Source: a virus. Taken from it: a stretch of 20,418 bases of DNA. The stretch lies in UHGV virus genome UHGV-0101751; one strand, given 5' to 3'. How positions within the stretch are numbered: the stretch's first letter is position 1; each line of letters opens with the position of its first letter. Positions 278 through 2,182 of this stretch are shown piece by piece. The notes below the pieces were generated by a model. It was not told where the DNA came from. It saw nothing but the letters and a program-made list of their open reading frames with translations, and did not search any database. The position numbers were made by a program, and so were the translations under genes.

Positions 278-556
278 TCAATCGAGGCGTTTTAGAATAT
301 CGGCCAGATCTTCTTTGGTCATACCCGAGTTTTCGTAAATCTTCATGACCTTTTCACGAGCCTTTGCAGTAGTCTCTAATGACGTAGCTATCTTATCAAA
401 ATCACCCATCGTCATATTGGACAGCACCAGATTGATGATGTCTGCCTTTGACAGTTTTATGCTGCGTTCACGCAGTCGATTCTGAAAGGTCTCTAGTTTA
501 TCGTTTGCTTTTTCGGTTAACTGAACCTGGCAGTGTATAGCGCGTTTCTCGCTCAT
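278..556 (-). CDS. Hypothetical small protein (92 aa), translationally coupled to the upstream helicase
   Basis: Its start codon lies 2 bp after the helicase stop, with a GAGAG Shine-Dalgarno inside the helicase 3' end. No family recognised. Confidence 0.55.
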   Translation of the reverse strand: MSEKRAIHCQVQLTEKANDKLETFQNRLRERSIKLSKADIINLVLSNMTMGDFDKIATSLETTAKAREKVMKIYENSGMTKEDLADILKRLD

Positions 557-558
557 GC

Positions 559-2118
559 TTACTCTCTATTCAAAACAGTGAAATCGAATGTGCTGCCAAC
601 CGGCAAGACCCCCTCGGCAAACCCAGGCGTCGTGTCGATAATGTGTTTCCGCTCATATGAATGCGACATGAGGTATTTGTTGCTCACGTCGATGAAGTCG
701 GTAATAAAGCACACGTTAGCCTGATTCTTTTTGGCTCGAAGACCGCGACCCACACGTTGACGCATCTCCACTTCGGCTTTGCCGCCACCACCCAGAATCA
801 CCGCGCCTACGCTTGGAACGTCGACACCAACATCCAGAATGGTTGAACCAATGAGAACATCTATCTTGCCTGCCGCCAGACTATTAAGTTTTGCTTGTCG
901 GGTAGTCTGGTTTGATTCTCCGTAGATGAAATCGACCTTCAGGCCACTCTCTTTCATCATTTCCATCAAGATCTGACCATGACGCTTCAGACGAACCAAT
1001 GTCATACAGTTCAGACCGTGACTCTTGTACATTAGCGCTTCACGCACAATAGCTTCGTTGCGGCCCAGATTATAGACGATGCCTAACTGATAGGCTTTCT
1101 GGTAAGCCGTGCTCATTCCAACCCGAAAATTCAGGTGTTTTGAAGCAAGTTCGGCTCTAATCCGCGCCTCATCTGGAGTGTACGCGATTTTATGATATAA
1201 AAAGTATGGTTTCGCTAAAATACCTCTGTCGATCAAATATTTCTCCGTTACTTTTATCTCGATGCGACCCGCAACGGCCATGAGACGCATATTTGCTTCA
1301 GTCGAGTCCTTCATGAACGGCGTAGCTGTCAGCGCCAGACGGTAGTCGGCATTGATGCACAACCGGGCGATGTCGTAGAAGTTAGAACCAGATGATTCGT
1401 GTGCCTCTTCCAGAATCAGCAGAGAAACGCTGGACAGGAAGCGTTTAACCAGTTCCCGGCGCTTCAGGTGGTACTGTTTTTTCTCCGGTGATGCGTCGCG
1501 CGGTGGCTCTTCGAGAAAACTGGCCAGGGTCTGCACCGTGGCAACGTTGATATGGCGCGAGACCTGGAACTCACCCGATCCAATCACCCCAACTCTCTGA
1601 CCTTTCAGCCACGGCTCGCCATTCTCCGCGCGGTAGTCGATGGATTTCTGGAAGTTCTCTGCCATCTGGAACATCAGAACCGATCGCGTGGTTAAAAACA
1701 GCGTCATACGACCAATGCGAGCAGCAGCCTTACACGCTACGTTCGATTTACCGCCACCCGTCGCAATCTGGGCAATCATCATCCCTTCGCGCACCAGTGT
1801 TTCCACTGTCTGATCCTGATACGCGTAGTCCGGGTTATACGGGAATGGGTTAACCACCGGATTCGGCTTACCCAGCGCGGGAGCTTTTTCCTTGCGAACA
1901 TGCACGCATTTGATGCCAGCTTTCAGAAGATTGGTCGCAACTGGCTTCGCAAACCCAGCCGGGAACGCGTTTTTACTCCAGTTGAACATCGTGCTGGTCC
2001 CTTTCCAGTCACCAGCCTCCACTTCATAGCTCAACATCTCCTGAACAAGCCGTTTCACGTTGTCATCAGCGCCAGAAATCAGCGCATTGACTGCATTTGA
2101 TACAATCCGAACAGTCAT
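559..2118 (-). CDS. Superfamily-2 DExH-type helicase (519 aa)
   Basis: Helicase motifs are visible in the translation: motif I ATGGGKS, motif II LILEEAHE, motif III LTATP, motif VI QRVGRGLR. An AGGAAAGAGG Shine-Dalgarno precedes the start. Confidence 0.85.
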   Translation of the reverse strand: MTVRIVSNAVNALISGADDNVKRLVQEMLSYEVEAGDWKGTSTMFNWSKNAFPAGFAKPVATNLLKAGIKCVHVRKEKAPALGKPNPVVNPFPYNPDYAYQDQTVETLVREGMMIAQIATGGGKSNVACKAAARIGRMTLFLTTRSVLMFQMAENFQKSIDYRAENGEPWLKGQRVGVIGSGEFQVSRHINVATVQTLASFLEEPPRDASPEKKQYHLKRRELVKRFLSSVSLLILEEAHESSGSNFYDIARLCINADYRLALTATPFMKDSTEANMRLMAVAGRIEIKVTEKYLIDRGILAKPYFLYHKIAYTPDEARIRAELASKHLNFRVGMSTAYQKAYQLGIVYNLGRNEAIVREALMYKSHGLNCMTLVRLKRHGQILMEMMKESGLKVDFIYGESNQTTRQAKLNSLAAGKIDVLIGSTILDVGVDVPSVGAVILGGGGKAEVEMRQRVGRGLRAKKNQANVCFITDFIDVSNKYLMSHSYERKHIIDTTPGFAEGVLPVGSTFDFTVLNRE

Positions 2119-2182
2119 AAACCTCTTTCCTTCGTGCCTTTTGTATGGTAATTGGCTATTATGTTAAGTAAGTGCTTACACA

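Follow-up and report, generated by a model that had tools for sequence, protein, structure and literature searches.

The stretch of DNA analysed here (20,418 nt, from UHGV virus genome UHGV-0101751; its full length is hereafter called the window) carries on its minus strand a superfamily 2 (SF2) helicase gene followed at once by the gene of a 92-aa protein. Judged from its sequence, the helicase is a true UvsW-family homologue, that is, a new member of a known family, and the small protein is most likely a ribbon-helix-helix (RHH) DNA-binding protein with a C-terminal helical extension. We tentatively favour the reading, at a rough probability of 0.4, that the small protein serves as a DNA-binding accessory factor for the helicase; their partnership, whether physical or functional, is put forward as a hypothesis only. 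Window positions 55-4400 were 96% identical to Salmonella phage SSU5, and the tested stretch was 100% identical to the Escherichia coli plasmid pB379_2 (NZ_CP090457.1, 152 kb, IncFIB) and likewise to a Shigella flexneri plasmid. These matches mark the source element as an SSU5-type phage-plasmid that has since been invaded by IS26. No description of the gene pair, or of the 18-bp motif treated below, was found in the literature searched.

The two genes, whose positions and 2-bp separation in an earlier first-pass annotation of this DNA were confirmed in the sequence, are as follows.

278..556, minus strand: 92-aa protein of phrog_1466, an unnamed family (full-length match, E 2.5e-50)
559..2118, minus strand: UvsW-family SF2 DNA helicase, 519 aa (Pfam, phrog_16, BLASTP and hhalign)

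The helicase and the small protein

Profile searches, as envisaged at first pass, placed the helicase in the UvsW family and the small protein in phrog_1466. In the helicase, the Pfam domains DEAD, ResIII and Helicase_C were all found above their cut-offs, and the protein was shown to be a member of phrog_16. Its motifs were intact, with TGGGKS at residue 120, LEEAHE at 236, TATP at 264 and QRVGRGLR at 454, a set that covers the Walker A motif, the DEAH-type motif II, motif III and the arginine finger of motif VI. BLASTP aligned residues 96-502 with T4 UvsW at 21% identity (E 3e-15), and a family profile of 20 members compared with UvsW by hhalign gave a probability of 99.55% (E 2.4e-23) over helicase residues 15-479 and UvsW residues 15-458, the N-terminal domain included. 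In that alignment, a UvsW_N-like domain occupies helicase residues of about 15-95, set against UvsW residues 15-113. Homologues about 50% identical to the helicase exceeded the Pfam gathering score for UvsW_N (34.2 vs 25.3 bits), and the window helicase on its own gave no Pfam UvsW_N match at E 0.01 or better. The likeness to the T4 pair of UvsW and UvsW.1, suggested at first pass, thus holds for the helicase; it fails for the small protein, as described under the comparison with known systems. The record of phage Cyrano already annotates the helicase homologue as UvsW.

T4 UvsW and T5 D10 branch-migrate junctions, including Holliday junctions and forks, and unwind branched DNA, R-loops and D-loops (PMC5180179). 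Solely from homology to these two enzymes, we infer that the window helicase may have branch-migration, fork-regression and R-loop-unwinding activity. The ORF (open reading frame) at 12475 was found to be DnaB-like and distinct from the UvsW-family helicase, which bears out the earlier view that the two loci are separate.

The C-terminal tails of the helicases were also inspected. Many homologues, the window helicase not among them, end in KKAA, RKAA or MAA, reminiscent of ssrA-like C-terminal degradation tags. The tail was considered as a partner-specific signature and rejected: it does differ between the loci with the RHH-type gene and those with a coiled-coil-type gene (see below), but the difference follows phylogeny and is therefore uninformative.

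The ratio of nonsynonymous to synonymous substitution rates (dN/dS) relative to SSU5 was 0.024 for the helicase and 0.13 for the small protein. Both genes are under purifying selection, and the value of 0.13 indicates that the small ORF is a real gene. Its product is 90-92 aa long throughout 32 clusters from Enterobacteriaceae, and the family had only 26 representatives among 1.84 billion proteins. The small protein matched no Pfam, NCBIfam or PADLOC family. Database names for the family are nearly all 'hypothetical'; two JGI entries read 'aminotransferase', and another JGI entry, for a distant member, reads 'predicted transcriptional regulator'. None of these names amounts to a credible function.

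An AlphaFold2 monomer model based on a deeper alignment reached a predicted local distance difference test (pLDDT) score of 86 overall and 93-97 over residues 11-50. It replaced an earlier AlphaFold model built from a shallow alignment (pLDDT 72), in which the N-terminus formed one long helix and for which no Foldseek match was found. In the newer model, residues 1-14 are extended, with a strand at about 6-13, and are followed by helices at 15-30 and 37-47; the C-terminal part consists of two helices, a long one at 50-76 and a short one at 81-90 that is nearly invariant and has the motif MTKEDLxDILKR. The top Foldseek match, which was below significance, was PcfF, an RHH protein with a stalk domain.

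Profile comparisons pointed in the same direction with little force. An extended family profile, which includes positional orthologues chosen partly by eye, matched CopG in register (strand, helix A, loop, helix B) at E 0.0028, while the unbiased family gave a weak hhalign E of 0.025 against CopG. One relative matched Pfam ParG at 1.7e-4 and one matched RHH_4 at 0.025; the window protein itself gave no Pfam RHH match. There was also a weak match to phrog_4268, 'transcriptional repressor' (E 0.0012), and a PDB sequence search with the single protein returned only noise such as leucine-rich repeats. An iterative search with hidden Markov models at a stringent database size stayed within Enterobacterales, and the more distant positional orthologues were joined via the extended profile. 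That profile recovered four independent members which had not been included in building it, so the family itself is real. Structure prediction and these weak profile matches together suggest the RHH fold; a protein of this fold would dimerise, with a two-stranded antiparallel sheet placed in the DNA major groove.

Alignments of the family showed where conservation is concentrated. The loop between the two RHH helices keeps a G/N-x-x-x-S pattern; helix B opens with two invariant residues, S36 and K37, and in relatives the loop begins with G. Invariance is highest in the C-terminal helix (Y74, E75, S77, M79, T80, E82, D83, L84, L88 and R90). The putative DNA-reading strand, on the other hand, differs among lineages, with IHCQVQL, ISVNVNF, TSMGLTL and TVSAKVS as examples. 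That the C-terminal helix and not the DNA-reading strand is the most invariant part supports a partnership with another protein.

Arrangement of the pair and its conservation

The helicase stop codon TAA (561-559) is followed by GC and then by the ATG of the small gene (556-554), and a Shine-Dalgarno-like GAGAG lies inside the last helicase codons, 5 nt ahead of that ATG. At first pass, the short gap had been read as a sign of translational coupling, and as implying co-expression of the helicase with a dedicated small subunit. The gap itself stands, but as evidence for a dedicated subunit it is weak, because gaps of 2 nt are ordinary in the window (e.g., 4364/4367 and 8021/8024) and because the spacing is not conserved, ranging from -4 to +49 nt among relatives. 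Translational coupling is plausible without being a conserved feature. The spacing between the helicase and the small gene was as follows.

SSU5, Cyrano and pJN2-26: 2 nt between the helicase stop and the small gene
Other Enterobacterales: 2-3 nt
Klebsiella variicola: 47 nt
Xenorhabdus and Morganella: 38-49 nt
Photobacterium: -1 nt
Halomonas: 11 nt
Methylomicrobium: 43 nt
Sphingomonas: -4 nt
Magnetospirillum: 21 nt (chosen start)
Acinetobacter-like loci: 11 and 125 nt (chosen starts)

Directly past the stop codon of the small gene, the following element was found.

253..272, minus strand: GC-rich hairpin ATGGCGCC-TTGA-GGCGCCAT (coding strand), then GATTTTCG

The RNA fold of this hairpin had an energy of -21 kcal/mol (z -3.99), and none of 200 shuffled sequences was as stable; a consensus terminator scan did not flag it, its T-run being short. 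The hairpin is probably the end of a two-gene transcript; the operon boundaries, like the translational coupling, are inferred.

Comparison across related elements demonstrated that the pair is conserved well past close relatives, in gamma-, beta- and some alpha-proteobacterial elements, and that it is not obligatory. Helicase identity among the loci keeping the pair drops to about 40-45%, and the genes farther downstream vary from locus to locus. In four beta-/gamma-proteobacterial loci, the small gene lies 0.6-1.2 kb downstream with another gene between, and these small genes are independent members of the family. Five alpha-proteobacterial loci carry after the helicase, instead of the RHH gene, an unrelated 58-76-aa coiled-coil protein, leucine-zipper-like and with a conserved DPIHFFN motif; at three of these five, its gene and the helicase stop overlap (ATGA). 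In three loci, a small membrane protein takes the place of the small gene. On the other side of the helicase, a ParB-ParB-ABC-...-terminase block was conserved throughout the relatives examined.

These patterns bear first on the view that no functional link exists, the small gene being unrelated phage 'filler' and its adjacency the product of a compact, collinear genome. We consider this unlikely. It would account for the other 2-nt gaps between gene pairs in the window, and for the interruption of the pair in four loci and the replacement of the small gene in several alpha-proteobacterial relatives. Moreover, gene order is conserved over the region as a whole, ParB operon through terminase, and the adjacency of helicase and small gene may therefore be general collinearity. 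The view of no link fits poorly, however, with the persistence of the pair over very large divergence while the downstream genes turn over, and with the hairpin that closes the transcript right after the small gene.

The same observations (ordinary 2-nt gaps, variable spacing, the interrupted and replaced pairs and the collinearity of the region) also weigh against the accessory-factor reading, as do several others: no RHH family member was found within 6 kb of the helicase in several alpha-proteobacterial loci; natural helicase-RHH fusions were absent among 175 fetched proteins; the rate of change is 5-7 times higher in the small protein (dN 0.21-0.35) than in the helicase (dN 0.04-0.05); the CopG match of the unbiased family is weak and the better one was obtained with orthologues selected partly by eye; and most RHH proteins are simply transcriptional repressors. 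Besides the invariance of the C-terminal helix, the accessory-factor reading is supported by the retention of the pair in distant relatives whose further downstream genes differ, and by the occurrence of other small proteins at the same position in alpha-proteobacterial relatives and in T4 (UvsW.1).

Control region and the multi-copy palindrome

Upstream of the helicase gene, a short region separates it from a divergent ParB-like gene and contains the following features.

2119..2182, no strand assigned: divergent control region (sequence, upstream alignment of 8 relatives, and 32 loci inspected)
2165..2182, no strand assigned: degenerate palindrome copy TAAGTAAGTGCTTACACA, with 3 mismatches in its right half relative to TAAGTAAGTACTTACTTA, and containing GTAAGTGCTTAC

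The length of 64 bp given at first pass is correct for the ATG at 2183 and becomes 83 bp if the ParB-like gene starts at the ATG at 2202, as annotated in relatives. In helicase-strand order, the region comprises the 18-bp palindrome, a -10-like CATAAT (2163-2158), AAGGCA (2140-2135) and the Shine-Dalgarno sequence GGAAAGAGG (2130-2122). Read on this strand as TGTGTAAGCACTTACTTA-A-CATAAT, the 18-bp near-palindrome stands directly against the -10-like hexamer. A sigma-70 scan gave no convincing -35 element for either of the divergent promoters.

The first-pass annotation had singled out the palindrome GTAAGTGCTTAC at 2168-2179. It is indeed present, with 5-bp arms GTAAG/CTTAC around a non-symmetric TG, but by itself it is unremarkable: an equal or better palindrome occurred in 22% of shuffled 64-mers, and the SSU5 counterpart of its right arm reads CTTAT. 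Its significance comes from its being part of a multi-copy 18-bp motif, of which it is one degenerate copy rather than a feature specific to this locus. The 14-mer core of the motif had 13 matches in the window vs 1.15 expected; clear copies lie at 5621-5638, 7135-7152, 11657-11674 and 17104-17121, and there are 5-6 in total. In the SSU5 genome, 26 sites with at most 4 mismatches to TAAGTAAGTACTTACTTA were counted vs 0.2 expected; most are followed by TATCAT, TATAAT or TATGAT, and their flanking sequence suggests that most are intergenic. Most of the 32 loci, which come from alpha-, beta- and gamma-proteobacteria, had a palindrome of the type AAGT[C/A]A-N4-T[G/T]ACTT some 60-70 nt ahead of the helicase start, often in several copies each. 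Being multi-copy and genome-wide, the 18-bp palindrome looks like a promoter or operator element of the SSU5-type group's own class and not one special to the helicase locus. The late promoters of phage P1, which combine a -10 box with an inverted repeat centred near -22 and are Lpa-dependent, are reminiscent of this motif, a likeness that we take as a lead only.

Nearly all loci inspected had a second element, AAGGCA(A), in the 5' leader of the helicase gene; in the window it occupies 2135-2140, where the plus strand reads TGCCTT. It lies 20-30 nt past the palindrome, just before the Shine-Dalgarno sequence, and some alpha-proteobacterial loci have two copies of it (AAGGCAATAGGCAA). Only the helicase leader carries this element; the other palindrome copies were not seen to be followed by it.

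The palindrome also bears on whether the 92-aa protein is instead an independent RHH regulator of transcription, repressing its own helicase operon or acting on other phage-plasmid genes, with no physical partnership. The general role of the RHH superfamily as repressors, the overlap of a conserved palindrome with the core of the helicase promoter, the 'predicted transcriptional regulator' name of one distant member, the weak phrog_4268 match and the fast divergence, which is frequent in regulators, all speak for such a role. Nevertheless, we regard it as somewhat unlikely: the palindrome has roughly 26 copies genome-wide, it is unchanged where the residues of the RHH strand differ completely, and it is kept in the alpha-proteobacterial loci in which no family member was found within 6 kb. 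Because the motif stays constant although the RHH strand does not, and because it persists where no RHH gene was found, the 92-aa protein is probably not its binder, and the candidate assignment of the palindrome as the operator of the RHH protein was judged unlikely. The analysis turned up no alternative operator, and an invariant C-terminal helix points to contact with a protein.

Under the favoured accessory-factor reading, the two genes would form an operon of the SSU5-type phage-plasmid, read from the element's own type of promoter, with the palindrome abutting the -10 box, and the transcript would probably end at the hairpin after the small gene. Translation of the small gene would probably proceed by re-initiation or coupling, since its Shine-Dalgarno sequence sits within the last helicase codons. 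The helicase would remodel branched DNA as UvsW and D10 do, and the small protein would dimerise and bind DNA through its RHH domain. Its invariant C-terminal helix could then touch the helicase or some other protein of replication or recombination, so that the small protein would recruit a partner enzyme in the manner of TraM and PcfF. Its gene would fill the position that the unrelated UvsW.1 takes in T4.

A bolder form of this proposal, in which the RHH protein is a dedicated DNA-targeting subunit that steers the UvsW-type helicase to particular sites, such as R-loops or forks at palindrome-type promoters or at the origin, appears very doubtful to us. If true, transcription would be tied to the switch of SSU5-type phage-plasmids between replicating as plasmids and replicating as phages, and the non-homologous proteins found after the helicase elsewhere, UvsW.1 in T4 and the coiled-coil protein of alpha-proteobacterial relatives, would have arisen convergently to serve one purpose.

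In phages, recombination-dependent replication and the rescue of forks depend centrally on UvsW-type helicases. A small DNA-binding protein of a second, unrelated kind, retained beside UvsW homologues in a broad range of proteobacterial phage-plasmids, would suggest that such helicases commonly work with a small DNA-binding partner, an idea for which the pair offers a test system in E. coli. SSU5-type phage-plasmids are common in clinical Enterobacteriaceae and bear resistance genes; given this clinical spread, their replication and regulation are of practical interest, and the motif of palindrome plus -10 box may define the transcription programme of the whole group of elements.

Phage-plasmid context and comparison with known systems

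The neighbourhood of the pair has been altered in this lineage on both sides, and the features concerned are the following.

1..55, no strand assigned: IS26 end (IS26 matches), truncating a lipoprotein gene
about 56-218, minus strand: remnant of that lipoprotein gene; intact SSU5_122 is 140 aa, and in intact relatives the gene stands after the small gene
2183..2611, plus strand: truncated ParB_N-domain gene, 142 aa (Pfam ParB_N, E 2.4e-13)
2601..3251, plus strand: 216-aa 3' remnant of the gene that ends the ParB operon, 296 aa when intact (phrog_886, profile positions 83-294 of 295)

The divergent gene had been described at first pass as that of a ParB-like nuclease. The ParB_N domain is present, but the gene is a deletion remnant. 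The first 128 of about 232 codons are authentic and are followed by 14 codons of foreign sequence, and the match of the ORF to phrog_723 is confined to profile positions 5-125 of 223. A blastn comparison with an intact E. coli plasmid defined a deletion of 2,074 bp, with its junction at 2567/2568 and a 2-bp microhomology, which takes the rest of the first ParB gene, all of the second, the ABC ATPase gene, an 84-aa ORF and the 5' end of the 296-aa gene. The latter is the fifth gene of the ParB operon; annotations elsewhere describe its family, phrog_886, as a fusion of an ABC-type ATPase with an acetyltransferase. The deletion appears to be shared by several E. coli and Shigella plasmids that bear IS26 and match at 100%. 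As every relative has the deleted operon beside its terminase, the present lineage may have become a defective phage.

The intact operon (SSU5 5130-8274) encodes two ParB_N proteins, an ABC-type ATPase and a roughly 300-aa protein with the ATPase-acetyltransferase annotation just mentioned. Elements ranging from those of Enterobacteriaceae to those of Halomonas and Methylomicrobium have it divergent from the helicase and beside the terminase genes. A role of this operon in packaging or DNA modification seems possible. Elsewhere in the window, a Tn3-family transposase gene (phrog_7951; 17482-20343, minus strand), together with the IS26 end at 1-55, breaks up the phage-plasmid backbone, and the capsid-to-lysis block that SSU5 has between the scaffold gene and the ParA-like gene is absent. 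An Rfam scan of the window found no RNA family.

The first-pass annotation had also raised the possibility that the helicase, the small protein and the ParB-like genes form a defence or anti-defence module against phages; we consider this highly improbable. In PADLOC, the helicase did resemble PbeA in part (E 1.6e-22, 78 bits), as well as the cores of type IV restriction helicases, and it also matched TIGR04095 (dnd-restriction). In addition, an SSU5-like plasmid is reported to lower the uptake of foreign DNA in Klebsiella, an effect that was mapped to no gene (PMC8969562). These matches, however, cover the generic SF2 core only and fall far below the family cut-offs (57 bits vs 600 bits for TIGR04095), while the helicase is a full-length UvsW homologue. 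Furthermore, the small protein matches no model, the proteins of the ParB operon have only generic ATPase and ParB-methyltransferase similarity, and the ParB operon is deleted here with the helicase pair intact. The genes are core, collinear and highly conserved beside the terminase in alpha-, beta- and gamma-proteobacterial relatives, and do not lie in a variable island.

Among known systems, the closest parallel is T4. Its UvsW (PDB 2OCA) is homologous to the helicase over the full length, comprising UvsW_N and the SF2 core, although the identity is only about 21-23%. T4 UvsW.1 (76 aa) and the 92-aa gene are alike in being small, on the same strand, and placed after a UvsW-type helicase. To our knowledge, the role of the small gene after uvsW in T4 has never been settled, and this analogy therefore explains little. 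The small protein was rejected as a UvsW.1 homologue (hhalign probability 0.15%, E 0.4), and UvsW.1 was absent from the results of the PDB sequence and fold searches made with it. UvsW.1 has been described as a three-helix protein (PMC7824862), whereas the small protein is predicted to consist of an RHH domain and two further helices. The hosts of the two gene pairs differ as well, being a temperate siphovirus-type phage-plasmid here and a virulent phage in the case of T4.

T5 D10 belongs by its sequence among the phrog_16-type phage helicases; we know of no small partner gene reported for it. It falls in the same UvsW/XPB-like SF2 group, and it branch-migrates and unwinds three- and four-way junctions (PMC5180179).

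For the small protein, the counterparts are to be sought among RHH proteins. TraM of F-like plasmids (PDB 3OMY, 3ON0) and PcfF of pCF10 (PDB 6QEQ) have no significant sequence similarity to it. Both are RHH accessory factors with a C-terminal interaction domain, which recruit partner enzymes and act at oriT in conjugation. Their fold match with the small protein is mainly in the RHH part, and nothing at the helicase locus suggests conjugation. With the CopG/Arc/Mnt repressors, the N-terminal half of the small protein shares size and domain order; unlike them, however, the protein is twice the CopG-type length and has a conserved C-terminal extension, and its helix A in the enterobacterial members is about 5-6 residues longer.

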